This document shows positions 5,520 through 17,997 of a stretch of DNA of 64,000 bases, in pieces (positions within the stretch are counted from its first letter, which is position 1; every line of letters starts with the position of its first letter). A model generated the notes under the pieces. That model was not told the DNA's origin, did not search any database, and worked only from the letters and a program-made list of their open reading frames with translations. Position numbers and translations under genes: made by a program. Source of the DNA: an uncultured Actinomycetes bacterium. GTDB taxonomy: Bacteria; Actinomycetota; UBA4738; HRBIN12. The stretch is from assembly GCA_963825635.1 (NCBI GenBank), contig CAWGTU010000003.1, positions 459,812 to 523,811 of the forward strand, given 5' to 3'.

Positions 5520-7397
5520 CTACTCCTCCGCCACCGAGGGCTCGAACGCCCACCCGTAGAAGCCCACCAACGCGATGAGGGCGCCGAGCCCGAACAGCCA
5601 CCACGAGTAGAGCACGCCGTAGCCGATGATCGGCAGGCCGAGGCTCGAGACGATCGGCCAGTACGAGGGGCTGGGCAGGTGGATCGCGTGGCCGCCCCCG
5701 TGTGCATCGTCGTGGGCGTCGGAGGCGCCCGCCTGCGCGGGCACGAGCCGGCCGGTGCGTTCGTCCTCCACGTACTTGCGATGCCAGAACTCGTCGAGCG
5801 AGTGCACGGTCGGGATCTCGTCGAAGTTGTGCACGGGCGGCGGGCTGGTGGTCATCCACTCGAGCGTGCGGGCGTCCCACGGATCCTCGACGATCTCGGC
5901 CCGGGGCTTCAGATGCGTGCGGATCACGTTCACGATGAACATCAGCACCGCCAGGGCGATCAGGAACGCACCCACCGTGGAAACCTGGTTCCAGAACGTG
6001 AGACCCAGGGTCTCCGGATACGTGTACTCGCGCCGGATCATGCCCTGCAACCCGAGGATGTGCATCGGTCCGAAGGCCAGGTTGAAGCCGATGATGAGGA
6101 GCCAGAACTGCAGCTTGCCGGCCGCCTCGCCGAGCCGACGCCCGAACGCCTTCGGCCACCAGTAGTAGAACCCCGAGAAGATGCCGAAGATCGCGCCGCC
6201 GAACAGCACGTAGTGGAAGTGGGCGACGATGTAATAGGTGTCGGTCTGTTGGTAGTCGCTCGGCACGATCGCGTGGGTCACGCCCGACAGCCCGCCGATC
6301 ACGAACATCGCCACGCCGCCGACCGAGTACAGCATCGCCGAGGTGAACCGGATGTCACCGCCGTACATCGTGCCCATCCAGTTGAAGATCTTGATGCCGG
6401 TCGGCACGGCGATGATCGCCGTCGAGACGCCGAACGCCGTGTTGGCGACCGGCCCGAGGCCGGCCGCGAACATGTGGTGGGCCCACACGCCGAACCCGAT
6501 GAACCCGATCGCGATGCCGGAGAAGACGACGAACTGGTAGCCGAAGAGCGGCTTGCGGCTGAACACCGGCAGGACCTCGCTGAAGATGCCGAACGCCGGC
6601 AGGATCAGGATGTAGACCTCCGGGTGGCCGAACAACCAGAAGAGGTGTTGCCACAGGATCGGATCTCCCCCGCGGGTGGGATCGAAGAACGCGGTGTCCC
6701 ACCGGCGATCGAACAACAGCTGGAACAGCGCGATCGTGATGATCGGCAGGGAGAAGACGAGCAGGAACTGCACGACCAGCCCCATCCACACGAACACGGG
6801 CATGCGGAACAAGGTCATGCCGGGCGCGCGCATGTTGATCACCGTGACCGCGAGGTTCACGGCGCCGGTGGTCGACGCCACGCCGGTGATCAGCAGGCCG
6901 ATCGCATAGAACGTCATGCCGATCGAGGGATCGGTCGTGGAGTTCGGCGCGTACCCGAACCAGCCGCCGTTCGGCGCTCCGCCTAGGAGGAAGCTCGAGT
7001 ACAGGAAGATCCCCCCGAACAGGAAGGCCCAGAAGCTGTACGCGTTGATGCGAGGGAAGGCCACGTCGCGCGCGCCGATCATCAACGGGATCAGGTAGTT
7101 GAACAGCGCCGACGACATCGGCATCACGAACAGGAAGATCATCGTGAGTCCGTGCATCGTGAAGATCTGGTTGTACTCGTCGGCGTTCAGCAGGGTGCTG
7201 TCGGGCTGCGCCAGCTGAGCCCTGATCAGCAGGGCCTCGAGACCCCCGATGATGAAGAAGAAGAACGCGACGACCCCGTACATGATGCCGATCTTCTTGT
7301 GGTCCACCGTGGTGAACCAGCTCCAGAAGCCCGTGATCGCCGTGGGCCGTCGTAGCAGCCCCCGGCCCCCGGTCGAAGGAACGCTCACGCTCGCCAT
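5520..7397 (-). CDS. ctaD: Cytochrome c oxidase subunit I (heme-copper oxidase catalytic subunit) with a C-terminal two-helix extension
   Basis: HHMF, WAHHMF and GHPEVY motifs with 12+ TM helices; 625 aa. Confidence 0.95.
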   Translation of the reverse strand: MASVSVPSTGGRGLLRRPTAITGFWSWFTTVDHKKIGIMYGVVAFFFFIIGGLEALLIRAQLAQPDSTLLNADEYNQIFTMHGLTMIFLFVMPMSSALFNYLIPLMIGARDVAFPRINAYSFWAFLFGGIFLYSSFLLGGAPNGGWFGYAPNSTTDPSIGMTFYAIGLLITGVASTTGAVNLAVTVINMRAPGMTLFRMPVFVWMGLVVQFLLVFSLPIITIALFQLLFDRRWDTAFFDPTRGGDPILWQHLFWLFGHPEVYILILPAFGIFSEVLPVFSRKPLFGYQFVVFSGIAIGFIGFGVWAHHMFAAGLGPVANTAFGVSTAIIAVPTGIKIFNWMGTMYGGDIRFTSAMLYSVGGVAMFVIGGLSGVTHAIVPSDYQQTDTYYIVAHFHYVLFGGAIFGIFSGFYYWWPKAFGRRLGEAAGKLQFWLLIIGFNLAFGPMHILGLQGMIRREYTYPETLGLTFWNQVSTVGAFLIALAVLMFIVNVIRTHLKPRAEIVEDPWDARTLEWMTTSPPPVHNFDEIPTVHSLDEFWHRKYVEDERTGRLVPAQAGASDAHDDAHGGGHAIHLPSPSYWPIVSSLGLPIIGYGVLYSWWLFGLGALIALVGFYGWAFEPSVAEE

Positions 7398-7416: not shown

Positions 7417-8526
7417 TCACGTCAGGCTGTACAGGTAGGCGACGAGGGCATCGATCTCCTCGTCGGTGAGTTGGTAGTCGGGCATCTTCGACCCGAGCTT
7501 CTCGGCGTCGGGGTTCGCGAGCCACGCCGCCAGCGCCTCACGGTCCTCGGTCGACCAGTTGCAGCCGGCGAAGCATGTGTGTGCCGGGTCGGCGAAGTGC
7601 GACAGGTTGGGTGCCGCGGCGCCTCCCGCGTCGCCCACGGCGTGACAGGCCGTACACGCCCCGCGTCCGTCGCTCAACGGGTTGAGGAACAGCTCCTCTC
7701 CCTGCCGGGCGAGAGGGTCGGTCGGACTCGGCGCCAGGGTCTGCTGGTTCTCGACCCACGCCTCCCACTCCGCCGGATCGAGCGCCACGACCTCGAGCTT
7801 CATCCGTCCGTGCTGCAGCCCGCAGAACTCGGCGCACTGCCCCGTGTAGGTGCCGGCCTCGTCGACTCGGAATTGGATGTGGTTCGTGCGGTTCGGCACG
7901 ACGTCCTGCTTGCCGAAGAGCTGGGGCACCCAGAACGAGTGGATCACCTGGAAGTCGGGATCGCCGTTCGCATCCTGGGCGCCGCCGCCCCTCGCCTCGA
8001 GCGAGAGGTAGACGTCGCGGCCGGTGGGCACCACCATCGTGTCGGCGATCGTGATCGGGCGATCCCAGTCGGTGACCATGTCCTCGTCGGGGTAGGAGAA
8101 CCCCCACCACCACTGGTACCCCTCGACCGTGATGTTGAGCGCACCGTCTTCCGGCGGGCGAGCCAGCTCCCAGATCAACGAGACCGTCGGCACCATCACC
8201 ACGGCGAGCACGACGGCGGGCGCGATCGTCCAGCCGATCTCGAGCCGCGTGTTGCCGTGCGTCTGCCGCGGCATGACGTCGCGGCCCTTGCGATGACGGA
8301 AGCGCAACGCGATGTAGAGGATGCCGCCCTGCACGATCACGAAGACGCCGACGGCGACCCAGAACACGGGAACGAACAGGTCCTTCTGTTGCTTGGCGAC
8401 GTCGCCGACGGGCTGCAGGGTGTCCTGGCCGGCGTTCGGAGCGCACGCCGCGAGCAGCAGTCCCGCGGCGACGAGGCCGAGGGTCCACAGCGCCTTCTTC
8501 CGCACGATCAGTCTCGCTCCTCGCAT
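7417..8526 (-). CDS. ctaC: Cytochrome c oxidase subunit II with a fused C-terminal cytochrome c domain (caa3 type)
   Basis: CuA motif (HSFWVPQL ... CAEFCGLQHGRM) plus a C-terminal CTACH heme c site. Lipoprotein-like signal with Cys. Confidence 0.9.
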   Translation of the reverse strand: MRGARLIVRKKALWTLGLVAAGLLLAACAPNAGQDTLQPVGDVAKQQKDLFVPVFWVAVGVFVIVQGGILYIALRFRHRKGRDVMPRQTHGNTRLEIGWTIAPAVVLAVVMVPTVSLIWELARPPEDGALNITVEGYQWWWGFSYPDEDMVTDWDRPITIADTMVVPTGRDVYLSLEARGGGAQDANGDPDFQVIHSFWVPQLFGKQDVVPNRTNHIQFRVDEAGTYTGQCAEFCGLQHGRMKLEVVALDPAEWEAWVENQQTLAPSPTDPLARQGEELFLNPLSDGRGACTACHAVGDAGGAAAPNLSHFADPAHTCFAGCNWSTEDREALAAWLANPDAEKLGSKMPDYQLTDEEIDALVAYLYSLT

Positions 8527-8613: not shown

Positions 8614-9573
8614 TCACTTCGCATAGCTGTGGAGGCCGACGATCCAGAGGTTCACGGCGTAGTACGTGATCAACAACGAGACGAAGCCGACCAGCGCGAT
8701 CACGGCGGCACGGCGGCCCTTCCAGCCGCTCGTGGCCCGAGCGTGCAGGTAGCCGGCGAAGATCACCCAGGTGATGAACGACCACGTCTCCTTGGGGTCC
8801 CAGCCCCAGTACCGACCCCACGCCTCCTGGGCCCAGATCGCGCCGGCGATCACCGCGAACGTCCAGATCGGGAACGCGACGGCGATGATGCGATAGGCGA
8901 GCCGGTCGAGCCCGGCGGCGGACGGCACGAGCCGGCGCGTCGCCGGCCGCGTCTCGGCGTCCTCGGCCGAGTCCGGCACGAGATCGGCCGGCACGTCGGG
9001 GTCGTCGAGGTCGATCGCGCCACCCATGATGGGCGGCGGGGTCTGCGCGCTCATCGACTCGAGCCGCCTGCGCTCGCTGCGGTCGACCACGAGGTAGGCG
9101 ATCGTCGCGATGCCGCCGAGCGCGAAGAGCGACGACCCCCAGATCGCGGCCTGCACGTGGATCTTGATCCAGTACGAGTTGAGCGCCGGCACGAGCGGTC
9201 CGGGACCCACGTAGAGGAACGACACCGCCACCGCCATCGTGAGCACGCTGAACATCAGGGCGAACCCGGTCAGCGAGCGCACCCGGTACACGCCCTCCAC
9301 GACGACCAAGGCCCCCACCACGACGAGCAGGGCGAGCAGCGACGAGTACTCGTACATGTTGCCCCACGGCACCCGGTCGGCCGCCAGTCCTCGCGCGACG
9401 ATCGAGACGAGGTTGGCCGCGACGCCCACGACCGCCACCGCCCGCGACACCTGCCAGATGGCCTCGCGCTTGAAGGCCAGGAAGACGAAGTACCCGACCA
9501 TCGCGGCGAGGTAGGCGAAGAGGGCCACGTTGAACGCGTCGTTCGAGATGCGTGCCCACTGCAGGTCGGTCAC
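8614..9573 (-). CDS. ccsA: Cytochrome c-type biogenesis protein CcsA/ResC (system II heme handling, W-rich motif)
   Basis: WGWDPKETWSF WWD motif and conserved His residues; polytopic. Confidence 0.85.
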   Translation of the reverse strand: MTDLQWARISNDAFNVALFAYLAAMVGYFVFLAFKREAIWQVSRAVAVVGVAANLVSIVARGLAADRVPWGNMYEYSSLLALLVVVGALVVVEGVYRVRSLTGFALMFSVLTMAVAVSFLYVGPGPLVPALNSYWIKIHVQAAIWGSSLFALGGIATIAYLVVDRSERRRLESMSAQTPPPIMGGAIDLDDPDVPADLVPDSAEDAETRPATRRLVPSAAGLDRLAYRIIAVAFPIWTFAVIAGAIWAQEAWGRYWGWDPKETWSFITWVIFAGYLHARATSGWKGRRAAVIALVGFVSLLITYYAVNLWIVGLHSYAK

Positions 9574-11192
9574 GGCGTCTGCACCCTCTCTCGATCCTCC
9601 GGCTCTCGATCTTCCGGCTCTCGATCCCCCCGCCCCGGCACCGAGGCGCCGCCGGCCGCCGAGGAGAGGGCGTCGACCAGGCGGGCGAACTCCTCCTCGA
9701 ACTGCGGCTTGCGCTGCAGCGCGAACCCGCCGACGCGCATCGTCGACCCGTCGCCGTCGGGATCGGCGCGCACCCAGACCTTGCGTCGGGAGCCGTACAA
9801 CGCGGGCAGCAGTCCCACGAGGATGAGGATAGCGGCGGCCAGCACCAGGGGCACCCCTGGGTCGCGCGCCACCTGGAACACCGAGTACTGCCGGAGCTCG
9901 GGGAACGAGATCGTGGAGCCCGACCCTTCCTCGCCGACGGCCAGGGCCGCGCCGTCGGCGAGGTCGGCGGTGCGCTCGGCGCCGACGATGCCCGACGAGA
10001 CCTCGTCGAGCACCGTCGAGTCGAGGCGGTTCGTCGCGAGGTCACCGATCACGCCCTCCCAGACCGTGAAGCGGATGATCGGGTCGAACTCCACCAGCAT
10101 CGCCTGCGGCACCGCTCCGGGCTCGAGCAGCGCCGCGAACGCCCGGCTGTCGGGCCACAGCTCGAGCTCGATCGCGCGGTCGAGGCCGCCGGCGCCCGCG
10201 CCGGGGAGCTTGACCACGCCGCGCCACGGCATCGCGAACTCGACGACGCCCTCGGGCGCAGGGTCGCGATCCATCACCACGGGGCCCGACGAGACGACCT
10301 CGCCGTCGACCGTGACCTGCACCACGGGCGCCCACCCGAAGCTCGACTGGTAGATCCAGAGCCCCTCGACCTTGGCCGGGTGGTTCACCCTGATCGACTC
10401 CTCGCGCAGCAGCGAGCCGTCGGGCTCGAGCACGTCGACCTCGGAGACGAAGTCCATCGGCTGGCCCGTGTTCGCGAAGTCGCTCCGGAAGTCCTTCAAG
10501 TGCAGACCGATGCCCGTGAAGTCGTCGAAGAAGCGCCCGGCACGGATCGTGCCGTCGTAGTTCGCCTCGGCGTCGACCCACGTCTGCCCCTCGACCACCG
10601 CGATCAGCCCGCTGAATCCGGTGCCCTTGCCGTAGATCACGCCGGCCAGCAGCAGGATGAACGCCCAGTGGAACGCGAGGCTCCCGACCTCCCGGGCGAG
10701 CCCCTTCTCCGCCGCGAGCGCGGGCCGATCCGGGTCACGCGCGACGCGGAACCGGCGCCGGCGCAGCGTGCGGCGCGCCGCCTCGATCGCCGCGTCGGGA
10801 CCGGCGGCGACCGCCACCTCCGCGTACCGCGGGAACGCGTCGATCTCGCGGGCCTGCATCGGCGGCGTGCGCACGTTGCGCCAGAGCGCCCTGGTCCTCG
10901 GCACGAGACAGGCGACGAGCGAGACGAAGAGCAGGGTCACGAGCAGCACGAACCACCACGACCCGAAGACGTCGAACAGCCCCGCCCGGTCGAAGAACGT
11001 GCCCCAGAACGGGTGGTCGGCCCGGTACTGCAGCACCCGCTCGGGGGTGTTCGGCCACTGAGGTAGCAGCGACCCGGCGACCGAGGCCAGGCCGATCATC
11101 AGCAGCAGGATGAGCGCCGTGCGCATCGAGCGCAGGGTCCGCCAGACGATGGCGACGGACTGGCGGAGCGTCAGGGACTGGGAAGAGGACAT
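9570..11192 (-). CDS. resB: Cytochrome c biogenesis protein ResB/Ccs1
   Basis: ResB-family N-terminal TM helices followed by a large periplasmic domain; 4-bp overlap with ccsA. C-terminus ends in a low-complexity EDREP repeat. Confidence 0.8.
   Translation of the reverse strand: MSSSQSLTLRQSVAIVWRTLRSMRTALILLLMIGLASVAGSLLPQWPNTPERVLQYRADHPFWGTFFDRAGLFDVFGSWWFVLLVTLLFVSLVACLVPRTRALWRNVRTPPMQAREIDAFPRYAEVAVAAGPDAAIEAARRTLRRRRFRVARDPDRPALAAEKGLAREVGSLAFHWAFILLLAGVIYGKGTGFSGLIAVVEGQTWVDAEANYDGTIRAGRFFDDFTGIGLHLKDFRSDFANTGQPMDFVSEVDVLEPDGSLLREESIRVNHPAKVEGLWIYQSSFGWAPVVQVTVDGEVVSSGPVVMDRDPAPEGVVEFAMPWRGVVKLPGAGAGGLDRAIELELWPDSRAFAALLEPGAVPQAMLVEFDPIIRFTVWEGVIGDLATNRLDSTVLDEVSSGIVGAERTADLADGAALAVGEEGSGSTISFPELRQYSVFQVARDPGVPLVLAAAILILVGLLPALYGSRRKVWVRADPDGDGSTMRVGGFALQRKPQFEEEFARLVDALSSAAGGASVPGRGDREPEDREPEDRERVQTP
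9587..9632. repeat. Three tandem copies of a 15-bp unit (ctctcgatcNNccgg) encoding the EDREP-EDREP tail of ResB
   Basis: Direct reading of the sequence at 9586-9632. Confidence 0.7.
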
Positions 11193-11221
11193 GGGACCGG
11201 GGCCATCCTAGCCGCGCGCCC

Positions 11222-11962
11222 TCAGATGCCCAGGGTGAACCGCTCGGCGAGCGGGGCCACGATGCGCGTGAACTCTCCCGTGAACAGCAGCACACCCACG
11301 ACGATCATGAGGGAGCCCGAAACGATCGCGATCGCCGTGTAGCGGCGCTTGACCCAGTCGAAGGCTCCCATGAACCTCGTCACCCCGAGCCCCACGAGCA
11401 GGAACGGCACCCCGAGCCCCGCCGAGTAGCTGACGAGCAGCAGCACCGCCCTCGGCGTGCTGCCGCTCGCCGCGATCGCGAGGATCGACCCGAGCACGGG
11501 ACCGATGCAGGGGGTCCAGCCCGCAGCGAAGGCCATGCCGAGCGGCACCGCGCCGACGCTGCCCGGCCGCACGCGCGCGAGGAACGGCCGCCGCTCGGCG
11601 TAGAGCGCCATCGACCCCCGGCGCAGCGCGTACCCGATCATCAGGACCCCGAACGTGATCACGATCGCGCCGCCCACCCGCTGCCCGGTCGTGCCCTTGA
11701 ACACCTGCACGAACGTCGAGGCGAACGCCCCGAGCAGCACGAACACGATCGTGAAGCCGAGGATGAACAGCAGCATCGGCGCCAGCGGCCTGCGATCGAC
11801 GCCCGACTCCTCGCCCACGATCTGCTCGCCGGTGATGAACGACACGTAGCCGGGGAGCAGCGGCCACACGCAGGGGCTGAGGCAGGAGACGAGCCCCGCG
11901 GCGAACGCCAAGGCGGGCGCCCACCACGAGGAGAGGCCGGTCTGCACGATGTCGGCGATCAC
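11222..11962 (-). CDS. ccdA: Cytochrome c-type biogenesis thiol-disulfide transporter CcdA (DsbD-family)
   Basis: CLSPC and second Cys motifs with six TM helices. Confidence 0.85.
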   Translation of the reverse strand: MIADIVQTGLSSWWAPALAFAAGLVSCLSPCVWPLLPGYVSFITGEQIVGEESGVDRRPLAPMLLFILGFTIVFVLLGAFASTFVQVFKGTTGQRVGGAIVITFGVLMIGYALRRGSMALYAERRPFLARVRPGSVGAVPLGMAFAAGWTPCIGPVLGSILAIAASGSTPRAVLLLVSYSAGLGVPFLLVGLGVTRFMGAFDWVKRRYTAIAIVSGSLMIVVGVLLFTGEFTRIVAPLAERFTLGI

Positions 11963-12023
11963 GGTTCCTCCGGACGACTGTCTTGCGTGGACCGTGGACC
12001 TGCAGCGATAGTAGCCGGGGAGC

Positions 12024-12042
12024 TTGTGAAACGATTCACGAG
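12024..12042. promoter_or_regulatory. Rex operator (ROP)-like inverted repeat TTGTGAA-acga-TTCACGA, shared between divergent ccdA and the cytochrome b operon
   Basis: One mismatch to the TTGTGAAnnnnTTCACAA consensus. A rex gene lies in the window at 17002..17685. Confidence 0.65.
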
Positions 12043-12077
12043 TGTCGGACGGTCGTCGGGCGCACGCGACACATGTC

Positions 12078-12083
12078 TATAAT
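12078..12083 (+). promoter_or_regulatory. Perfect TATAAT -10-like hexamer ~50 bp upstream of the first gene of the cytochrome b operon
   Basis: AT-rich hexamer in a 70%-GC background. No clear -35, as is common in actinobacteria. Confidence 0.4.
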
Positions 12084-12135
12084 CGCCCCGCCTCAGGGAG
12101 ACTCGCCCACAGAGACGCTAGGGACCCAGGAGCGT

Positions 12136-12552
12136 ATGAGCCAGGTCGAGAGCACGACGCCCACCCAGACCCGGAAGGAACGCGTCGAGGCGTTCCTGAA
12201 GGAGTTCGAGTGGTCGTGGACCACCGCCGTCGTCTTCTCACTGGGACTGGTCTTCTTCCTGTTGATCTCGACGTCGGTGCTCCCGTCGTTCTGGCTCTAC
12301 TTCTCCGAGCAGACGCTCGGCTGGCAGGGTCCGACCGACATCGAGGCCGCCCTGCAGGAGGTCCCGACCTTGCTCCCCGGCGGCGACCCCGCGGAGTACC
12401 AGGAGTTGCTGCTGCAGGTGCGCGACGCGATCGCGATGGGCCTCTCGACGGTGCCGATCATCCTCGTGCTCGTCGTCGCGTCGATCATGCAGAACTGGCG
12501 GCGCAAGCTCCGCGGCGCGTCCGACAGCCGTCCGACCGGCGGGTACCGGTAG
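12136..12552 (+). CDS. Small integral membrane protein (2-3 TM), first gene of the Rieske/cytochrome b operon
   Basis: ATG with a GGAG RBS. Hydrophobic helices. Coordinates computed from ORF track residue M52. Confidence 0.55.
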   Translation: MSQVESTTPTQTRKERVEAFLKEFEWSWTTAVVFSLGLVFFLLISTSVLPSFWLYFSEQTLGWQGPTDIEAALQEVPTLLPGGDPAEYQELLLQVRDAIAMGLSTVPIILVLVVASIMQNWRRKLRGASDSRPTGGYR

Positions 12553-12564
12553 GAGCGGAGGCCG

Positions 12565-12963
12565 ATGCCCTACACCAAGACCGAGGTCGACATCCACGAG
12601 GACTACACCGTGGAAGCCGTCGACCCCGCGTGGCTCGCTCACGGGGTCAAGTCCCCCAAGCACCTGATGCTCGACCCCGACAACTGCATCCTCTGTCGCG
12701 CATGCGAGGACGTCTGCCCGTGGAACTGCATCTACATGATGTCGCCGGGCATCGTCTCGGGAGCCGCCGAGCACGTCGTCGGCGACGAGGTGGACAACGC
12801 GACGGCGGTCTTCGTGGTCGACGACAACGCCTGCACGCGCTGCTCCGTCTGCGTCGACCGCTGCCCCACCGACACCTTGTACTATGCGCGACTGCCCGAG
12901 GGCTCCAAGGGCGGGCAGCGCACGATGGCCGAGGTTCCCGCGTCGCAGGCCGAAGCCGTATGA
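12565..12963 (+). CDS. 2x[4Fe-4S] dicluster ferredoxin
   Basis: Two CxxCxxCxxxCP motifs (CILCRACEDVCP; CTRCSVCVDRCP). Confidence 0.85.
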   Translation: MPYTKTEVDIHEDYTVEAVDPAWLAHGVKSPKHLMLDPDNCILCRACEDVCPWNCIYMMSPGIVSGAAEHVVGDEVDNATAVFVVDDNACTRCSVCVDRCPTDTLYYARLPEGSKGGQRTMAEVPASQAEAV

Positions 12964-13012
12964 GAGCGCTCGCGCTCATGCAGCCGAAGGCGGTAGCGCG
13001 AAGGGAGAGACC

Positions 13013-13783
13013 GTGAAGCTGAAGCCGCCGTCACCCGGCGACCTGGGTGATCGGATCAGGGAGACCGAGGTCTGGAAGTCGATCTTCCGGCCCGGCTCGA
13101 TCTTCCGCAAGGGCTACAAGGACACGTCGCGCGATCGCGCGCTCGCGACGATGAACAACGTGCTCTACCACCTGCACCCGGTGAAGGTGAAACGGCACGG
13201 GCTGAAGCTGACGTACACGTTCTGTCTGGGCGGGCTGTCGTTCTTCCTGTTCATCCTGCTGACGATCACCGGCATCTTCCTGATGTTCTTCTACCGGCCG
13301 ACCGCCGACATCGGCGGCGCCCAGGCGTTCGCCGACATGCAGAACATCCGCACGTCGGTGTTCTTCGGCGACCTGGTGCGCAACCTGCATCGGTGGGGCG
13401 CCCACCTCATGGTCTTCAGCGTGACGCTGCACATGGCGCGCGTCTTCTACACCGGCGCGTACAAGCCGCCGCGCGAGTTCAACTGGGTCGTCGGCGTGAT
13501 CCTGCTCTTCCTCACGCTGGGACTGTCGTTCACGGGCTACCTGCTGCCGTGGGACCAGCTCGCGATCTGGGCGGTCACGGTGGGCACGTCGCTCGCGGGG
13601 TATTCGCCGTTCATCGCGAAGCAGGCGAACTTCCTGCTGCTCGGCGGCGTCGTGGTCGGCCCCGAGACGCTGCTCCGCTGGTACACGCTGCACGTGATCG
13701 GGCTGCCGTTCGTGTTGGTGATCTTCCTCGCGGTGCACTTCTGGCGCATCCGCAAGGACGGCGGCATCTCGGGACCGCTCTAG
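13013..13783 (+). CDS. Cytochrome b6-type (short, N-terminal half of cytochrome b) with four heme-ligating His residues
   Basis: GTG start with a GGGAGA RBS. His pairs in helices B and D (HRWGAH...TLHMAR; TLHVIG...AVHFWRIR). Confidence 0.85.
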   Translation: MKLKPPSPGDLGDRIRETEVWKSIFRPGSIFRKGYKDTSRDRALATMNNVLYHLHPVKVKRHGLKLTYTFCLGGLSFFLFILLTITGIFLMFFYRPTADIGGAQAFADMQNIRTSVFFGDLVRNLHRWGAHLMVFSVTLHMARVFYTGAYKPPREFNWVVGVILLFLTLGLSFTGYLLPWDQLAIWAVTVGTSLAGYSPFIAKQANFLLLGGVVVGPETLLRWYTLHVIGLPFVLVIFLAVHFWRIRKDGGISGPL

Positions 13784-13801
13784 AGGGATCCAGGGGAAGA
13801 C

Positions 13802-14239
13802 ATGGCCAAGGAAGACACCCCGCTCGACCAAGGAGTCTTCGACTCCACGCTCGAGGCGGAGCTCGCCAAGGGCACCGACCGGCGCGTCGCCGAAGGGCGA
13901 GCGCGCTCGGCGGCGGTGCGAGCCTTCCGCGCCGCCAACCCCGAGGAGGCCGCGAAGCACGAGGCCGCAGGCGCGAAGCCGGCCGCTGCTGCAGGAGCTG
14001 GAGCCGGGGCCGCAGCGGCAGCCCCTGCCGCTGCTTCCGCCGCGAGCGCTGGCGCGGCGGCCGGCGCCGCCCCGTCGCCGTCGCGGCCGCCTCGGTCACC
14101 ACACCGGTTCGCGAGGCGCCGCTGCCCACCGGCAACGTGCCGACGCCGAAGAAGGGCGCGGAGGACAAGCACCGATTGCTCGCGCTCGTGCCCCCCGAGG
14201 GCATCCAGCGCGTGGAACGCGAACAGGGCGACCGCGTGA
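13802..14239 (+). CDS. Ala-rich ORF, either a separate small protein or an N-terminal extension of subunit IV that is out of frame
   Basis: ATG 19 bp after the cyt b6 stop with an RBS-like GGGGAAG. The first ~60 aa look protein-like, then an Ala/Gly-rich linker, then Arg-rich junk. The subunit IV reading frame continues in frame 0. Confidence 0.3.
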   Translation: MAKEDTPLDQGVFDSTLEAELAKGTDRRVAEGRARSAAVRAFRAANPEEAAKHEAAGAKPAAAAGAGAGAAAAAPAAASAASAGAAAGAAPSPSRPPRSPHRFARRRCPPATCRRRRRARRTSTDCSRSCPPRASSAWNANRATA

Positions 14240-14655
14240 ACGTCTGGCCCCACCTGCTGATCGAAGAGTTCGTCGCGATGTTCATCCTGCTCGCGGGCAT
14301 GACGCTCTTCTCCACGTTCATCAACGCGCCGCTGCGCGAGCTCGCGAACCCGAACCTCACGCCGAACCCGTCGAAGGCACCCTGGTACTTCCTGGGTCTG
14401 CAGGAGCTGCTGCGCTACTTCCACCCGATGGTCGCGGGCATCACGATCCCGACGTTCATCCTGGTCGGGCTCGCCGCGGTCCCCTACGTCGACCGCAACC
14501 CGAGCAACAAGCCGGGCGACCGCAAGATCGCGATCACGCTGATGACGATCCTCTTCATGTTCGGCGGGGTGCTCACGATCATCGGCTCGTTCTTCCGCGG
14601 GCCCGGGTACAACTGGGTGTGGCCGTGGGCGCAGGGGGTGTTCTTCGAACTGTGA
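14137..14655 (+). CDS. Cytochrome b6-f subunit IV-like (C-terminal half of cytochrome b, PEWY-like APWYF motif)
   Basis: NPSKAPWYFLGLQELLRYF motif plus three TM helices. A GTG start at 14137 is the minimal model; the true start may lie upstream via the 13802 ORF. Confidence 0.7.
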   Translation: MPTPKKGAEDKHRLLALVPPEGIQRVEREQGDRVNVWPHLLIEEFVAMFILLAGMTLFSTFINAPLRELANPNLTPNPSKAPWYFLGLQELLRYFHPMVAGITIPTFILVGLAAVPYVDRNPSNKPGDRKIAITLMTILFMFGGVLTIIGSFFRGPGYNWVWPWAQGVFFEL

Positions 14656-15392
14656 GCACGCTGCTCTCCGGTTCCTCGGCCAGTCTCTTGGGCATCTCCA
14701 CGCCGCTCGTCGCCGCGATCCTGGCCTTCGTGGTGCTCGACATCTTCGCGATCGTCTTCGGCCTCTCGTTCGTGCGCGCGAACCGCGCCGCCCGCGAGAC
14801 CGCCGACGGCCAGATCGAGGTGGCCGGCAAGCCGGTCAAGTCGCTCTCTCGTCGCGACTTCTTCCGCCGCTCGCTGCTGACCTCGCTGATCGTCTTCGGC
14901 GCGCAGTTCGGCGGCGCGACGATCGCCTTCCTCTGGCCGAACCTGAAGGGCGGGTTCGGGTCGTTGGTCGCGGCGGGCAACATCGACGACATCAAGGCCG
15001 AGATCGACGACGCCGGCGTGGCCTACAACGGAACCGGCCGGTTCTACGTGGTCGAGTACAGCGGCTCACCGAGCGGTGACGTCGACTACGCGACCCAAGG
15101 CGTCACCGCCGAGGGCATCATGCCCCTGTACCAGCGGTGCGTGCACCTGGGGTGCCGCGTGCCCTACTGCGGCTCCTCACAGTGGTTCGAGTGCCCCTGC
15201 CACGGCTCGAAGTACAACGGCGCCGGCGAGTACAAGCTCGGGCCCGCGCCCCGAGGCATGGACCGGTTCCAGCTCGAGATCATCGACGGCAGCGTGGTGG
15301 TCGACACGAGCGAGGTGATCCTCGGACCGCCGCGCGGCACCGACACCGTCGACCAGCCACCGCAGGGTCCGTTCTGCGTGGCGACCGGATAG
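14652..15392 (+). CDS. Rieske [2Fe-2S] protein with a twin-arginine signal and N-terminal TM helices
   Basis: CVHLGC and CPCHGS Rieske boxes; SRRDFFRRS Tat motif; GTGA overlap with the subunit IV stop. Confidence 0.9.
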   Translation: MSTLLSGSSASLLGISTPLVAAILAFVVLDIFAIVFGLSFVRANRAARETADGQIEVAGKPVKSLSRRDFFRRSLLTSLIVFGAQFGGATIAFLWPNLKGGFGSLVAAGNIDDIKAEIDDAGVAYNGTGRFYVVEYSGSPSGDVDYATQGVTAEGIMPLYQRCVHLGCRVPYCGSSQWFECPCHGSKYNGAGEYKLGPAPRGMDRFQLEIIDGSVVVDTSEVILGPPRGTDTVDQPPQGPFCVATG

Positions 15393-15411
15393 GAGAGGAA
15401 CGGCCACGACC

Positions 15412-16119
15412 ATGCTCGCAGCCACGAACACCGCAGGCATCGTCCTGCTCGTGCTCGGCGCGATCTTCGTGCTCGCGGCGGGAGCCGCGCTCTACTTCCG
15501 CAGCCGCCAGAAGGAGCAGCCGCTCGACATCCCGCGGGGGATGCGCCCCGGCCCGAGCGACGCCGCCCTCGAGACCCCGCTCCTGCAGAAGCTGCAGGGC
15601 TGGGGGGTCGTGCTCGTCGCGTTCTTCGTGGTCTTCATCCCCTACAACTGGCTGCGTGAACCGAGCGAGAACCTGCGCCAAGAGGAGGAGTTGCTGACGC
15701 TCGCGTTCGACCGCGGCGAGCTCGCCGTGCAGAACTTCAGCGAGGAGAACCAGCTCGGCGTGGGCTGCGTGCGCTGTCACGGCCCCGAGCTGCGCGGCGG
15801 CGTGATCCAGTCGGGTGACACGCTCGCCTATCCGCCGAACCTCACGAACATCTGCGCGGGGCCCTTCGGCGATCCGCCGCACAACACGATCTTCTCCCAG
15901 GAGGACATCTACCAGGTGCTCGAGGAGGGCCGCAACGCGATGCCCTCGTGGAGCATCCGCTACCAGGGCGCCCTGAACGACCAGCAGATCAACGACCTGG
16001 TCGTGTACCTGGTCGAGATGAGCTCGGAGAACGTGCCGTTCGAGGACAACGTCTGCCTGAACCCCGAGGCGTCCGATCGCGCGCTCGCCGAGACCGACCT
16101 GAACCCGAGGGACCCGTAG
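15412..16119 (+). CDS. Membrane-anchored monoheme cytochrome c
   Basis: N-terminal TM helix and a CVRCH heme-binding motif; GGAGAGGAA RBS. Confidence 0.85.
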   Translation: MLAATNTAGIVLLVLGAIFVLAAGAALYFRSRQKEQPLDIPRGMRPGPSDAALETPLLQKLQGWGVVLVAFFVVFIPYNWLREPSENLRQEEELLTLAFDRGELAVQNFSEENQLGVGCVRCHGPELRGGVIQSGDTLAYPPNLTNICAGPFGDPPHNTIFSQEDIYQVLEEGRNAMPSWSIRYQGALNDQQINDLVVYLVEMSSENVPFEDNVCLNPEASDRALAETDLNPRDP

Positions 16120-16863
16120 ATGGAGCACAGCTGCCTGGGATTCGCGGTCGAGTGCGACACCCTGTGGAAGGGCGCCGGCGTCACGATCATGGGCTTCACG
16201 CTGTTCATCTTCAGCGTCTACCTGCTGCTCACGGCGATCTTCGGGCGGTGGCTCGGGTTCCTCGTCCTGATGGTGTCGTTCTCCGGATGGATGATCCTGC
16301 AGTCTGCGCTCTGGCTCTTCGGCTTCTGGTCCCAGGGATTCGAGACGCCCACGAACCTCGGCCCCCGCGGGGCCGAGCCGGCGTGGGTCGCGCTCGAGGC
16401 GGCAGTCGACGAGACCTCCACCGAGTACGCGACCTACGAGACGTGGCCCGGCGATCCGTGGGCGATCCCGGACGAGACCGATCCTGCCCAATCGGCCGAC
16501 GTGCAGAGCGCGAGCGGCGCGGTGACGGCGTTCCTGGCCGAACAGACGAACGAGGAGCTCGGCCTGGAAGAGACCGATCCGACCGCGATCCAGGGCAGCC
16601 AGTTCTCGATCGACTCGATCCAGTTCGCCTCGGACGAGGGGACCAAGCTCGCGGTCGTGCAGTCCCACTACACCGGCGGCGGTCCGCTGTGGACCGTATC
16701 GCTGTATTACGACTCGGGCAGCGTGCCCCGCTACTCGTACATGTTCCTGGCAGGCTCGATCGTGGCGTTCGCGGCGTTCCTGCCGCTGCTGGATCGGGCC
16801 GAGAAGAAGCGCAAGGAGTTCCTGACCGGGGGCGGCGCGCCCGCCTGGTACGGCCCCGCCTAG
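16120..16863 (+). CDS. Integral membrane protein of unknown function (3 N-terminal TM helices, a ~150-aa soluble domain, then a C-terminal TM), translationally coupled to the cytochrome c gene
   Basis: Start ATG immediately after the cytochrome c TAG; hydrophobicity pattern. Confidence 0.5.
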   Translation: MEHSCLGFAVECDTLWKGAGVTIMGFTLFIFSVYLLLTAIFGRWLGFLVLMVSFSGWMILQSALWLFGFWSQGFETPTNLGPRGAEPAWVALEAAVDETSTEYATYETWPGDPWAIPDETDPAQSADVQSASGAVTAFLAEQTNEELGLEETDPTAIQGSQFSIDSIQFASDEGTKLAVVQSHYTGGGPLWTVSLYYDSGSVPRYSYMFLAGSIVAFAAFLPLLDRAEKKRKEFLTGGGAPAWYGPA

Positions 16864-16881
16864 GCACGAGAGAGGAACACG

Positions 16882-16995
16882 ATGATCGCCACCCTGGAGC
16901 TTCCCTTCCTCGAACAGGGAAGCGTGCAGTTCATCCTGATGGGCGTCATGATCCTCGCGGTCTTCGCCGCGCTCTGGGTCACGATCTCGAAGTAG
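16882..16995 (+). CDS. Unannotated 37-aa single-TM peptide (MIATLELPFLEQGSVQFILMGVMILAVFAALWVTISK) ending the cytochrome b operon
   Basis: ATG preceded by a GAGAGGAA RBS at -8. Hydrophobic core. Below the ORF-track length cutoff. Confidence 0.5.
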   Translation: MIATLELPFLEQGSVQFILMGVMILAVFAALWVTISK

Positions 16996-17001
16996 CGGCC
17001 C

Positions 17002-17685
17002 TCATCTCCCGGCGACGTCGGCCACCGCCCGGCCCCGTCGCTTCACCTCCGCGAGCGTCGCCTTCCGCTGCTCATAGAAGGCGAGGATCTGCAGCTCCAC
17101 CGCCAGGTCCACCTTGCGCACGGAGACCCCTGGCGGCACCGTGATCATCGCCGGCGCGAAGTTCAGCACCGACCGCACCCCCGCATCGACAAGTCGGTCG
17201 GCGACCTCCTGGGCGGCCGTGGCCGGCGTGGCGATCACCCCGATCGCCACGTCGAGCTCCTCGACGATGCGCGGCAGGTCGTCGACGGGCCGCACGCCGA
17301 GCTCGCCGATGCGCTCCCCCACCCTGGCCGGGTCGGCGTCGACGAGCGCCGCCACACGGAAGCCTCGCTCCGCGAACCCGCCGTAGTTCGCGAGCGCCTG
17401 GCCGAGGTTGCCGATGCCGACGATCACGATCGCCCAGTCCTGCGTGAGACCCAGCTCCCGCCTGATCTGGTGGATCAGGTAGGCGACGTCGTAGCCGACG
17501 CCCCGCGTGCCGTAGGAGCCGAGGTGCGACAGGTCCTTGCGGACCTTCGCGGAGTTCACCCCCGCGGCCCCGGCGAGCTCGTCGCTCGAGACCGTGGCCG
17601 CACCGGCTTCCGCGAGGTCGACGAGCGCGCGCAGATATACCGGGAGCCGACCGACCGTCGCCTCGGGGATCGATCGTTCCCTCAC
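17002..17685 (-). CDS. rex: Redox-sensing transcriptional repressor Rex
   Basis: N-terminal winged helix (RLPVYLR), Rossmann NADH-binding domain (VGIGNLGQAL), CoA-binding-like fold. Confidence 0.9.
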   Translation of the reverse strand: MRERSIPEATVGRLPVYLRALVDLAEAGAATVSSDELAGAAGVNSAKVRKDLSHLGSYGTRGVGYDVAYLIHQIRRELGLTQDWAIVIVGIGNLGQALANYGGFAERGFRVAALVDADPARVGERIGELGVRPVDDLPRIVEELDVAIGVIATPATAAQEVADRLVDAGVRSVLNFAPAMITVPPGVSVRKVDLAVELQILAFYEQRKATLAEVKRRGRAVADVAGR

Positions 17686-17763
17686 CAGGGGGACACGCTC
17701 CGCTGCATGGGTTCAGCCTAGCCCGGGGTCCGGTCCGTTCACAAACTCACAAGCCTGACCGAT

Positions 17764-17997
17764 TCAGTGTCGCAGGAGGGAGGCGAGCTCGCCCGCATCG
17801 ACCGTGTACTCGAAGACCTCCACCCCGTCGAGGGCGACCACCGGGATGCGAACGCCGTACTCGGCGACCAGCGAGTCGGACGTCTCGATGTCGACCTCCA
17901 CGAGCTCGAACGGCGTGCGGTCGCGCTCGGCCTGCAACACGGCTCTCGCCTCGTCGCAGAGGTGACACCCGGCGCGGGAGTAGAGCGTGACCTGCAT
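17764..17997 (-). CDS. Glutaredoxin-like small thioredoxin-fold protein (CxxC)
   Basis: 77 aa with CHLC near the N-terminus; upstream of rex. Confidence 0.6.
   Translation of the reverse strand: MQVTLYSRAGCHLCDEARAVLQAERDRTPFELVEVDIETSDSLVAEYGVRIPVVALDGVEVFEYTVDAGELASLLRH

Follow-up and report, generated by a model that had tools for sequence, protein, structure and literature searches.

The operon on the + strand at 12136-16995 of the window (the whole 64,000-nucleotide stretch of DNA analyzed here) is, as a whole, probably best explained as encoding a complex III built on the cytochrome b6 plan, with a ferredoxin subunit on the cytoplasmic (n) side and with expression controlled by Rex. 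Open reading frames and Pfam and NCBIfam profile searches gave the gene order TM138, ferredoxin, cytochrome b6, subunit IV, Rieske protein, cytochrome c, U247 and U37, and every gene described in the first-pass annotation of this DNA was found. The operon is tight, with gaps of 0-49 nt or 4-nt overlaps, and no excess of internal terminators was seen in it.

The cytochrome b is split into b6 and subunit IV in a b6c-like Rieske/cytochrome b complex, as previously described. The b6 protein (13013..13783, + strand, 256 aa; start corrected to the GTG at 13013) has four helices, matches PF00033 with 145.5 bits, and contains the histidine pairs H-x13-H and H-x14-H, the heme ci motif FC71LGG and the C-terminal motif RIRKDGGISGPL. 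Its closest solved relatives are the b6 proteins of b6f complexes (1q90_B, 8.9e-47), in which Cys35 aligns with Cys71, and the ExtP model scores 288.9 bits on it against a cut-off of 290. A conserved N-terminal extension of about 36 aa brings H53, H55 and H62. Subunit IV (13802..14655, + strand; PF00032, 33.6 bits) has the Qo motif APWY and a cytoplasmic N-terminal extension of about 130 aa, consisting of a conserved head and an Ala/Pro-rich linker. In the window its gene is split over two frames, with one G missing near 14070-14073 in a DNA alignment with the relatives L005, L007 and L008, where it is a single ORF of 280-289 aa. This 1-nt deletion is probably an assembly error; if it is real, the complex would be defective in this organism. 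The b6/subunit IV pair is a member of the "APWY clade" of Kao and Hunte (2014, PMC4122944).

The Rieske [2Fe-2S] protein (14652..15392, + strand) matches PF00355 and scores 62 bits with the b6f Rieske model. With its start corrected to the GTG at 14652, the gene overlaps the subunit IV stop by 4 nt and encodes 246 aa, as in L007. The N-terminus has an extra helix, then the Tat motif SRRDFFRR, then the anchor helix; this motif and the cluster boxes CVHLGC and CPCHGSKY are conserved in relatives. The cytochrome c (15412..16119, + strand, 235 aa; PF13442, PF00034) is a membrane-anchored monoheme protein with two N-terminal helices and the motif CVRCH. There is one CxxCH in this protein throughout the near clade, and there are two in Nitriliruptoria, Acidimicrobiia and many Chloroflexota. 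The QcrB, QcrA and QcrC models all score below their cut-offs (107, 21 and 15.5 bits against 500, 275 and 200), in line with the earlier statement that this is not the canonical actinobacterial qcrCAB.

We consider it very probable that the operon product acts as a complex III (quinol:cytochrome c oxidoreductase), which we assume to be "the" complex III of the organism. The sequence shows a core of a four-helix b6 with a cysteine for a third, covalent heme (ci), a three-helix APWY subunit IV, a Rieske protein exported by the Tat route and a monoheme cytochrome c anchored in the membrane. The complex would oxidize menaquinol and pass the electrons to the adjacent caa3-type oxidase, whose subunit II has a cytochrome c domain. 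It is most likely a menaquinol:cytochrome c reductase that feeds this oxidase and has an iron-sulfur port on the n side.

The neighboring genes form a respiratory island that is also found in relatives. Upstream and divergent from the operon are the System II cytochrome c maturation genes (8614..11962), all on the - strand: ccdA (11222-11962; DsbD_TM), resB (9570-11192; annotated as ResB in relatives) and ccsA (8614-9573; annotated as Cytochrom_C_asm in relatives). They are followed on the same strand by genes identified with Pfam and NCBIfam as COX2 with a fused cytochrome c domain (7417-8526), COX1 (5520-7397), COX3 (4878-5516), caa3 subunit IV (4506-4871), Caa3_CtaG (3668-4498) and a three-cupredoxin protein (2321-3628); the same searches identified a fusion of a heme A synthase-like protein with heme O synthase (28-1716) on the + strand. 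This setting bears on whether the complex could run in reverse or have a non-respiratory role, as has been proposed for some members of the APWY clade. A reversed Q cycle was proposed for one of these complexes, and the complex of the Geobacter metallireducens p-cresol cluster was proposed to return electrons from a periplasmic donor to the menaquinone pool (Kao and Hunte 2014, PMC4122944, section 13). The APWY Qo motif, which lacks the carboxylate of PEWY/PDWY, would suit such a role. We nevertheless judge it very unlikely here, given that the operon shares its island with genes for a caa3 oxidase, for making hemes a and o and for maturing cytochrome c, that no periplasmic dehydrogenase gene adjoins it, and that the organism has mycothiol (MshA, 487.8 bits against a cut-off of 462.5), in keeping with an aerobic actinobacterial lifestyle.

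The ferredoxin (12565..12963, + strand, 132 aa; Pfam Fer4 with 48.6 bits, Fer4_7) is a stand-alone 2x[4Fe-4S] protein with two CxxCxxCxxxCP motifs, the dedicated dicluster ferredoxin that had been reported. It has a ninth invariant cysteine, C55, and neither a signal peptide nor a membrane helix, and the extensions at both its N- and C-terminus hardly vary in an alignment of relatives. The best solved relatives are modules of the polyferredoxin FwdF (7bkb_K, 5.7e-21; 5t5i_F, 8e-13). Its AlphaFold2 model has a pLDDT of 48 and is unusable. Public annotation calls the protein by the generic name "4Fe-4S binding protein".

At least 597 species-level genomes have a close relative of this b6, and the neighborhoods of 80 species-level loci fetched from these were compared. 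The ferredoxin, or a ferredoxin domain, is directly upstream of b6 in 76 of the 80; two of the other four loci are cut off at b6, and two from Thermomicrobiales lack it. The adjacency extends over two phyla and holds for b6 identities as low as 59%, and the ferredoxin stands alone in 42 Actinomycetota loci. The only apparent fusion of the ferredoxin to b6, in P0002, was rejected as a frameshift artifact. In the near clade, the ferredoxin ranks third in mean identity (82%), after b6 (91%) and the subunit IV core (88%) and ahead of cytochrome c (67%) and the Rieske protein (65%). The operon had been called atypical, which is true relative to model actinobacteria and does not hold within its own clade. 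There, the order ferredoxin, b6, subunit IV, Rieske protein, cytochrome c is the standard locus, in a large and mostly uncultured clade that includes many uncultured Actinomycetota; this is not a well-studied clade, and no biochemical description of the ferredoxin-bearing operon type was found in the searchable literature.

In 33 Chloroflexota loci, the ferredoxin domain forms the C-terminal part of an FAD/NAD(P) iron-sulfur flavoprotein that is GltD/NfnB-like and is encoded at the same gene position. The fused ORFs, of 618-657 aa, combine Fer4_20, Pyr_redox_2 and a C-terminal Fer4, and there is a 4-nt overlap between their stop and the start of b6. No flavoprotein partner was found within 10 kb in any Actinomycetota locus. 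Judged by similarity (E about 1e-9 to 1e-12) and synteny, the window ferredoxin and the C-terminal domain of the Chloroflexota flavoprotein are homologues, an assignment that rests largely on synteny because similarity among dicluster ferredoxins is dominated by the cysteine motifs. Since it is the stand-alone counterpart of this domain at the same gene position, we infer that the ferredoxin is a structural subunit on the n side, with a likelihood comfortably above even. It would be bound over heme bH/ci, as a port for electrons passing between the cytoplasm and the chain of b hemes. Through it, the complex might carry out quinol-driven reduction of a low-potential acceptor, or a cytoplasmic reductant might deliver electrons to the quinone site.

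A ferredoxin with no membrane helix, no signal sequence and only a generic public annotation might instead be an ordinary soluble carrier that is merely co-expressed and serves other enzymes without contact to the complex. That seems quite unlikely, because its position next to b6 is kept across two phyla with overlaps of the translational-coupling type, the same position is occupied by a flavoprotein fusion in Chloroflexota, its lineage-specific extensions are nearly invariant, and the cytoplasmic extensions of b6 and subunit IV co-occur with it. Residue 62 of b6 is histidine in 85 of 87 sequences and tyrosine only in the two loci without any iron-sulfur module, a correlation behind which there are only two related genomes.

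The ferredoxin, possibly together with TM138, could also be a maturation factor absent from the mature complex. It would then provide reducing power on the cytoplasmic side, either for binding heme ci covalently to b6 Cys71 or for a different step of assembly. In line with this, b6 has the CxGG motif of heme ci, the operon begins with the genes of TM138 and the ferredoxin, and TM138 belongs to no known family. In its favor, too, the machinery for heme ci attachment is to our knowledge unknown outside chloroplasts and cyanobacteria (the CCB system); against it, we know of no such ferredoxin gene for the Bacillus-type b6c complexes, which attach heme ci. The Thermomicrobiales b6 also has the heme ci cysteine and yet no ferredoxin, the ferredoxin is more conserved than the Rieske protein and cytochrome c, and the Chloroflexota domain is part of a protein that also contains a complete NAD(P)/FAD oxidoreductase, which is easier to reconcile with a catalytic path for electrons than with a chaperone. 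We therefore regard a maturation factor as unlikely and retain the n-side subunit as the preferred interpretation.

The three uncharacterized membrane proteins noted in the first-pass annotation were confirmed and are conserved in relatives. TM138 (12136..12552, + strand, 138 aa; start corrected to the ATG at 12136, conserved in relatives, where the gene has 138-143 aa) is predicted to have two membrane helices and ends in the invariant sequence (T/S)GGY(R/K). It has no Pfam or NCBIfam match, and only 70 clusters match it among 1.84 billion representatives. Upstream of the ferredoxin, it is conserved among near-clade members with 35-79% identity; in Nitriliruptoria and Ca. Actinomarina the conservation is weak. 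U247 (16120..16863, + strand, 247 aa) is a three-helix protein with an acidic alpha/beta domain of about 115 aa predicted on the outer side; its invariant residues include C5, C12 and H183, and its C-terminal motif is LTGGGAPAWYGPA. It has no Pfam, NCBIfam or PDB relative and 697 homologues, all annotated "hypothetical". Its AlphaFold2 model (pLDDT 82) gave at best E 0.07 and a TM-score of at most 0.14 in a Foldseek search of the PDB. U37 (16882..16995, + strand) is a single-helix peptide of 37 aa, encoded by a gene of 37-39 aa in relatives (53-100% identity by tblastn) that keeps the motif PLL(D/E)QGSVQFIL...W(I/V)TI(A/S)K. These lineage-restricted proteins are probably accessory subunits.

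The predicted Rex operator TTGTGAAACGATTCACGA, corrected to 12024-12041 from 12024-12042, has 1 mismatch to TTGTGAA-N4-TTCACAA and is the only match in the 64-kb window; one or more matches turned up in 14 of 100 shuffles even when as many as 3 mismatches were allowed. A box is present at the orthologous position in 16 of 18 species-level relatives (L005-L020, L023-L026), with the half-sites kept, a varying spacer and 0-2 mismatches, and it is the sole site with two or fewer mismatches in each locus of about 20 kb. By this phylogenetic footprinting, the recurrence is far above chance and the operator reported earlier appears real. The box is lost in three relatives (the L001-L004 species, L021 and L022); rex still adjoins the operon in the first, and the loci of the other two end before rex. 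In the window, rex (17002..17685, - strand; NCBIfam equivalog NF003992, 361.4 bits against a cut-off of 226) is convergent with the operon, as claimed previously and as in relatives, and lies downstream of a glutaredoxin-like gene (17764-17997; Glrx-like domain).

Directly upstream of the box is the element TTGCGT-N18-GATAGT (11983..12012, + strand), which we take for a promoter with a predicted transcription start near 12019. A generic promoter scan made no call on it; alignment of 20 orthologous ccdA/TM138 intergenic regions showed conserved GGGTTGC and (G/C)ATAGT blocks. In the same alignment, a perfect, conserved TATAAT (12078..12083, + strand), 36 nt downstream of the box and followed by GCCCCGCC, is nearly invariant and may be a second -10 element. 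Rex would control transcription from an operator just downstream of a promoter-like element, and by analogy with characterized Rex proteins the operon would be repressed at low NADH/NAD+ and released once NADH accumulates. The box lies in a divergent region, upstream of ccdA and 62 nt from its start codon, and could regulate ccdA-resB-ccsA-cta in place of the bc operon or together with it. Control of the divergent ccdA-resB-ccsA-caa3 operon rather than of the bc operon, with the latter transcribed mainly from the TATAAT, where a promoter would escape the roadblock, has a small but real chance of being correct. With the conserved + strand element TTGCGN-N18-nATAGT as the promoter, however, the box falls at about +5 to +22; on the - strand we could place no reasonable -35/-10 pair that would let the box repress, and control of the two sides is not mutually exclusive. 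We are rather confident that Rex control of the operon is functional.

The suggestion of a possibly novel respiratory module was not borne out as wholly novel, because the b6/subunit IV pair belongs to the APWY clade already in the literature and the ferredoxin has a clear relative in the iron-sulfur flavoprotein subunit of the Chloroflexota complexes, which resembles the anammox subunit. Residues 21-367 of the Chloroflexota flavoprotein match NfnA/NfnABC (including 9bp5) and GltD, and residues 542-625 match FwdF (5t5i). Proteins of the NfnA/NfnABC-GltD type and FwdF are also the reported structural homologues of anammox Kuste4570/Kustd1483 (PMC12954380, section 2.5), and the architecture of the flavoprotein is that reported for the anammox Rieske/cytochrome b complexes. 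In AlphaFold3 models of those complexes, an N-terminal histidine of b6 carries an extra heme beside the reductase (PMC12954380). The complex encoded by the operon is similar to the anammox complexes that are linked to NAD(P).

From the sequence, we predict that eight close-set genes on the + strand, at 12136-16995 of the window, encode a Rex-controlled b6-type complex III of the APWY clade with a dedicated ferredoxin on the cytoplasmic side (n-side). The gaps between the genes are 0-49 nt, with one 4-nt overlap (ORF map). First in order is TM138, a 138-aa protein with two hydrophobic helices and no Pfam or NCBIfam family (12136-12552), followed by a 132-aa ferredoxin with two CxxCxxCxxxCP motifs (12565-12963; Fer4, 48.6 bits), cytochrome b6 (13013-13783; PF00033, 145.5 bits), subunit IV (13802-14655; PF00032), and a Rieske protein (14652-15392; PF00355), in which an extra hydrophobic helix precedes the twin-arginine motif SRRDFFRR. 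The remaining genes encode a cytochrome c with one CVRCH motif and two N-terminal helices (15412-16119), a 247-aa membrane protein of no known family (U247; 16120-16863), and a 37-aa hydrophobic peptide that is conserved in relatives (U37; 16882-16995). On the - strand, rex (17002-17685; NCBIfam equivalog NF003992, 361.4 bits, cut-off 226) converges on the end of the operon, and ccdA, resB, and ccsA, recognized by domain matches and by the annotation of relatives, diverge from its start. ORFs, Pfam, and NCBIfam bear out the gene list of the first-pass annotation, with all eight genes, the convergent rex, and the divergent ccdA.

Also on the - strand are the genes of a caa3-type oxidase: COX2 with a fused cytochrome c domain (7417-8526), COX1 with a Cyt_c_ox_IV-like tail on subunit I (5520-7397), COX3 (4878-5516), and caa3 subunit IV (4506-4871), together with Caa3_CtaG (3668-4498) and a protein with three cupredoxin domains (2321-3628). 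A fusion of a heme A synthase-like protein and heme O synthase lies on the + strand at the window edge (28-1716). The bc operon, the caa3 oxidase, ccdA-resB-ccsA, and the heme synthase fusion form one respiratory island from position 28 onward, an island common to the relatives' loci. MshA, of mycothiol synthesis (39977-41224), scored 487.8 bits against an equivalog cut-off of 462.5, confirming both the earlier recognition of mshA and the actinobacterial host. An Rfam scan of the whole window gave zero matches.

Cytochrome b is split between separate genes for a four-helix b6 (the PF00033 protein) and a three-helix subunit IV (the PF00032 protein). The b6 protein has the histidine pairs H-x13-H and H-x14-H, with H227 and H242 invariant in 87 sequences; the H-x14-H spacing of helix D is of the b6 type, and the C-terminal motif is GISGPL. 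Its best solved relative is the b6 of b6f complexes (1q90_B, E = 8.9e-47). Cys71, in the CxGG motif (FC71LGG), aligns with the heme-ci-binding Cys35 of Chlamydomonas b6, is invariant in the same 87 sequences, and is the predicted attachment site for the covalent third heme, ci (or cn). At the quinol-oxidation site (Qo), subunit IV has APWY (SKAPWYFLGLQE) where others have PEWY or PDWY, and this motif is kept across the loci. The motif points to membership of the b6/subunit IV pair in the APWY clade of Kao & Hunte 2014, with indirect support from the score against the ExtP model. The Rieske boxes CVHLGC...CPCHGSKY are kept in all relatives.

Two more familiar identities were considered and rejected. 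All three models of the actinobacterial QcrCAB complex scored far below cut-off on the window proteins (NF050120, 107.3 against 500; NF050121, 20.7 against 275; NF050122, 15.5 against 200), and the cytochrome c has only one CxxCH. The ExtP and ExtQ proteins of Geobacter selenite/tellurite reduction came closer, with b6 at 288.9 bits against the ExtP model (cut-off 290) and subunit IV at 52.6 bits against ExtQ (cut-off 150). Both scores are under the cut-offs, and neither the window nor the relatives' loci contain the extHIJKLMNOS neighbours (porin, rhodanese, and multiheme cytochromes). Three actinobacterial relatives of b6 (P0059, P0082, and P0107) have the NCBI name "selenite/tellurite reduction operon b-type cytochrome ExtP". 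Given the scores below cut-off and the missing Geobacter context, we regard this label as an over-annotation in the present clade.

The number of hemes in the cytochrome c differs between lineages (loci L027-L065 compared with the window's clade): there is one in the window's clade and in L037 and L038, and there are two in Nitriliruptoria, in Acidimicrobiia (474-499 aa), and in many Chloroflexota. This distribution indicates that the electron exit on the outer side has been remodelled repeatedly.

Subunit IV is spread over two reading frames in the window. In the relatives' loci L005, L007, and L008 it is a single gene of 280-289 aa, and their DNA alignment with the window shows a single G to be missing from the latter near 14070-14073, in an Ala/Pro-rich linker. 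Many genes are broken in sister assemblies of that project (L002, L004, and L006), and for this reason we take the frameshift to be a likely assembly error; the 1-nt deletion is probably of long-read origin.

A scan of one genome per species yielded at least 597 genomes with a close relative of b6, the best 80 of which (59%-97% identity) were analysed, the loci being searched by tblastn with the window's proteins and a Chloroflexota protein. A stand-alone ferredoxin of 113-149 aa lies upstream of b6 in 42 of the 80 loci, all from Actinomycetota: the soil metagenome-assembled genomes nearest the window, Nitriliruptoria (Euzebya and Egibacteraceae among them), and Acidimicrobiia (Ca. Actinomarina among them). 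In 33 loci, from Chloroflexota of the Limnocylindria type, a ferredoxin domain forms the C-terminus of a large flavoprotein upstream of b6. One locus ends within the ferredoxin domain, two begin at b6 and are uninformative on ferredoxin, and two, from Thermomicrobiales, have no ferredoxin although upstream DNA is present. The order ferredoxin-b6-subunit IV-Rieske-cytochrome c is constant across the loci. Matches to TM138 and U247 occur in the near clade (the loci closest to the window), with weak ones in Nitriliruptoria and a small number of others; U37 was found in the near clade only.

The arrangement had been called unusual for an actinobacterium. Among the best 80 of at least 597 genomes it is the normal layout in a large, mostly uncultured part of Actinomycetota, and since the same gene order runs through this large clade, the arrangement is atypical only when compared with Mycobacterium or Streptomyces. 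The first-pass reading as a b6c-like variant with a ferredoxin stands as regards the split b6/subunit IV and the distinction from QcrCAB, and falls as regards an atypical character within its own clade. As read from this locus alone, the gene content shows a large part of Actinomycetota that appears not to use the textbook QcrCAB-aa3 chain. In the searchable literature we found a ferredoxin-bearing Rieske/cytochrome b complex undescribed in Actinomycetota and Chloroflexota, an earlier account in subscription journals being possible. One flavoprotein-b6 locus, L050 (JAICUY010000026.1), is labelled Steroidobacteraceae (Gammaproteobacteria) and is 88-95% identical to the Chloroflexota locus L047; its contig is probably mis-binned.

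In Chloroflexota, the "ferredoxin" stop codon closes an ORF of 618-657 aa and overlaps the b6 start by 4 nt. Examples are L047:8022-9995, L058:7992-9965, L063:8043-9974, and L086:8136-9992, with 29 more in the other Chloroflexota loci. Pfam finds in it Fer4_20 (61-65 bits), Pyr_redox_2 (99-108 bits), and a C-terminal dicluster Fer4. Among solved structures, residues 21-367 match NfnA/NfnABC (including 9bp5), NfnI, and the glutamate synthase small subunit, and residues 542-625 match the FwdF polyferredoxin (5t5i, 9sw6, and 7bkb). The protein is thus predicted to combine a GltD/NfnB-like FeS module, an FAD/NAD(P) module, and a dicluster ferredoxin, an architecture published for the anammox NAD(P) oxidoreductase subunit. 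We found no description of such a flavoprotein from aerobic Chloroflexota in the searchable literature. A weak Fer4_20 match at the N-terminus of a seemingly short Chloroflexota ferredoxin was discarded as a feature of its own, the ORF really running about 500 aa further upstream.

The best solved relatives of the window ferredoxin are likewise FwdF modules (7bkb_K, 5.7e-21; 5t5i_F, 8e-13), and it matches the C-terminal domain of the Chloroflexota flavoprotein with E of about 1e-9 to 1e-12 at an equivalent gene position. No GltD-like module was found by tblastn with the 510-aa L047 query in the 64-kb window, or with the L047 query within the 10-kb flanks of any Actinomycetota locus. By synteny and similarity, the window ferredoxin appears to correspond, as a stand-alone protein, to the FeS domain joining the NAD(P) flavoprotein to b6, and we infer, with reasonable though far from full confidence, that it is a bound subunit on the n-side. 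The actinobacterial complex would then be a reduced relative of the NAD(P)-flavoprotein-bearing Chloroflexota and anammox complexes.

Sequence conservation, the ends of the ferredoxin, co-occurring traits, and cytoplasmic features of b6 lend the subunit role more support, all of it indirect. In the near clade, mean identity is 91% for b6, 88% for the subunit IV core, and 82% for the ferredoxin, followed by cytochrome c (67%), Rieske (65%), U247 (63%), and TM138 (55%). Outside the cluster-binding core, the N-terminal 40 residues and the C-terminal tail of the ferredoxin show almost no variation, and the loop between the clusters is variable. A ninth cysteine, C55 (window 12727-12729), stands in the motif CPWxC four residues past the first cluster motif; it is invariant in the stand-alone actinobacterial form and missing from the fused Chloroflexota domain. 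The stand-alone form goes together with C55, with TM138 (which has an invariant C-terminal (T/S)GGY(R/K)), and with a cytoplasmic extension of about 130 aa on subunit IV, and all three are missing from the fused form. They may hold the small ferredoxin in place. The AlphaFold2 model of the ferredoxin, made from a shallow alignment of sequences at least 80% identical, has a pLDDT of 48 and a pTM of 0.40. A candidate natural ferredoxin-b6 fusion (P0002, a 407-aa ENA protein) was rejected, as the C-terminal half of its ferredoxin and the linker are an out-of-frame translation; it is a long-read frameshift artefact and provides no Rosetta-stone evidence.

The b6 protein has a conserved cytoplasmic N-terminal extension of about 36 residues with invariant H53 and H55 (HLHP), plus H62. 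At residue 62 (window 13196-13198, just ahead of helix A), 85 of 87 sequences have His; the two exceptions, with Tyr, are the Thermomicrobiales loci L080 and L088, both of which are without a ferredoxin or flavoprotein gene. The RK pair R247 and K248 is also invariant. AlphaFold3 models of the anammox complexes place an extra heme b on an N-terminal His (His43 or His62) of each b6 monomer, where it adjoins a C-terminal Arg/Lys and an Arg of the reductase (PMC12954380). By analogy with this prediction, His62 may be a ligand of an extra n-side heme. The parallel between the His62/RK pair and the anammox models is suggestive, its anammox side being taken from a description and the His62 correlation from two related genomes.

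TM138, U247, and U37 are probably accessory subunits, as judged by their operon membership and conservation. The TM138 family is very small, with 70 clusters among 1.84 billion representatives. U37 is a conserved single-helix peptide whose size recalls the small b6f subunits. U247 has 697 homologues, none of them named, and no relative in Pfam, NCBIfam, or the PDB; sequence matches in the PDB to designed armadillo proteins were dismissed as compositional, and a fold search of its model against the PDB gave a best E of 0.07. In the AlphaFold2 model (mean pLDDT 82), two N-terminal helices lead into a mixed alpha/beta domain at about 85-200, after which come a third helix and a basic tail. The positive-inside rule predicts an outward orientation for the acidic domain and for the invariant Cys5 and Cys12; His183, also on the predicted outer side, and the C-terminal motif LTGGGAPAWYGPA are invariant as well.

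The Rex box at 12024-12041, TTGTGAAACGATTCACGA, has one mismatch to TTGTGAA-N4-TTCACAA and is the sole match in the window. The operator had already been proposed from the window sequence, and comparison strengthens that proposal: of the 18 species-level relatives in the near clade, 16 have a box at the orthologous position, the closest, L005-L008, included. These boxes have 0-2 mismatches and keep the half-sites around a variable 4-nt spacer, and the box is the sole such site in each near-clade locus of about 20 kb. It has been lost in three relatives, namely the species of L001-L004, L021, and L022. The intergenic alignment also shows a conserved TTGCGN-N18-(G/C)ATAGT that ends 11 nt ahead of the box and a perfect, conserved TATAAT 36 nt past it. 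The first of these elements would be the + strand promoter, placing the box at about +5 to +22. Because the generic promoter scan called nothing in 11800-17800 and flagged neither element, we infer both promoter assignments from conservation alone. Terminator-like sites in 11800-17800 were no more frequent than in shuffled sequences. Most plausibly, Rex is a repressor of the bc operon, and it may also act on the divergent ccdA-cta operon. In L039, a relative from Actinomycetota at a greater distance, a box with one mismatch (L039:15169-15186) lies about 40 nt upstream of rex and not of the bc operon, which suggests autoregulation of rex and a rewiring of the regulon.

A bound n-side ferredoxin raises the question of the direction of electron flow. 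Menaquinone is the quinone of Actinomycetota and Chloroflexota, and mutagenesis has established that hydrogen bonds from Ser and Tyr raise the potential of Rieske clusters. The anammox authors make the same point on Ser/Tyr hydrogen bonds and report +303 and +335 mV for anammox Rieske proteins of the Ser/Tyr type despite menaquinone as the quinone; they argue that so high a Rieske potential would drive heme bP very low and permit reduction of a low-potential acceptor (PMC12954380). This argument could apply, by analogy, to the present complex as well. At Qo, a high-potential Ser/Tyr-type Rieske protein would be paired with low-potential menaquinol, and the second electron would be forced onto very low-potential b hemes and then onto the [4Fe-4S] clusters. 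The product would be reductant at the level of ferredoxin in Actinomycetota and NAD(P)H in the Chloroflexota with the fused flavoprotein, and this low-potential output would replace, or accompany, the proton-motive Q cycle. That the bound ferredoxin is such an electron exit, with an aerobic complex III making low-potential cytoplasmic reductant from oxygen respiration, we put forward as a speculative and rather unlikely proposal. The gene content would be equally compatible with flow in the reverse direction, in which a cytoplasmic reductant enters the quinone-reduction site via the ferredoxin, and equally with a ferredoxin that is a purely structural remnant.

If the electron-exit proposal were true, the mechanism proposed for anammox would extend to abundant aerobic lineages of soil and sea, including Ca. 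Actinomarina. At least 42 species-level genomes of Actinomycetota, those of Ca. Actinomarina, Euzebya, and Nitriliruptorales among them, have the ferredoxin hard-wired into this operon, and the sister Chloroflexota carry it as part of a full NAD(P) flavoprotein. The locus bears on two questions: n-side electron exchange between b6-type complexes and ferredoxin, which is the disputed role of b6f as a ferredoxin:quinone reductase in cyclic electron flow, and the diversion of the low-potential electron to cytoplasmic acceptors by Rieske/cytochrome b complexes, proposed for anammox but not demonstrated. These are aerobic systems, some with cultivated members, in which an n-side FeS link becomes directly testable.

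In its regulation, the locus resembles the Rex regulons of Streptomyces coelicolor and other Gram-positive bacteria, with a Rex orthologue and TTGTGAA-N4-TTCACAA upstream of respiratory genes. The known Streptomyces targets of Rex are cydABCD, nuo, and rex-hemACD, and we found no report of a Rieske/cytochrome b operon as a Rex target in the searchable literature. With the QcrCAB-aa3 chain of Mycobacterium and Corynebacterium, the complex shares the phylum, the task of passing electrons from menaquinol to an oxidase, lineage-specific accessory subunits, and a Rieske protein with one or more extra helices ahead of the Tat motif. It differs from that chain, which has a long fused QcrB, a diheme QcrC, and an oxidase subunit II without cytochrome c.

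The QcrABC (b6c) complex of Bacillus and Geobacillus is closer in having a split b6 and subunit IV, the heme ci cysteine, a menaquinol-using Gram-positive host lineage, and a caa3-type partner oxidase with cytochrome c fused to subunit II. To our knowledge, Bacillus lacks a ferredoxin as well as counterparts of TM138, U247, and U37. Bacillus subunit IV carries a fused cytochrome c, and PDWY stands at Qo (PMC4122944), whereas the window has a separate, two-helix cytochrome c and APWY. The cyanobacterial and chloroplast b6f complexes have the closest solved b6, with Cys35, the helix D H-x14-H, and the C-terminal GISGPL, and they have small single-helix subunits (PetG/L/M/N, compared with U37 in the window). 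They differ in having cytochrome f rather than a class I cytochrome c, the PEWY motif, and a ferredoxin or FNR that is at most loosely bound and encoded outside the operon. Ferredoxin has long been proposed as an electron donor to the n-side heme of b6f (PMC5600118).

The APWY clade, which includes Geobacter ExtOPQ, shares APWY, the split cytochrome b, and CxGG with the window, and subunit IV matches ExtQ; the window has FCLGG in place of the WCMGG typical of the clade. Its members include Actinobacteria (Ilumatobacter) and Chloroflexi, none characterised according to Kao & Hunte 2014 (PMC4122944). Geobacter ExtOPQ sits amid multiheme cytochromes and a porin, without a ferredoxin (PMC5877670).

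The anammox complexes of Kuenenia stuttgartiensis (Kuste4569-4574 and Kustd1480-1485) share with the window a b6-type split cytochrome b with subunit IV and a heme cN site, a Ser/Tyr-type Rieske protein (the high potential having been measured on the anammox side), and an extra FeS protein on the cytoplasmic side with an FwdF-like FeS part. The reported structural homologue of Kuste4570 is 5t5i (PMC12954380). The anammox complexes differ in their hexa- and octaheme cytochromes and HAO-like protein, where the window has a single monoheme cytochrome c with a caa3 oxidase next to it. They also have an NfnB/GltD-like FAD/NAD(P) module, which neither the window nor any of the 42 Actinomycetota loci has and which has a counterpart in the 33 Chloroflexota loci.
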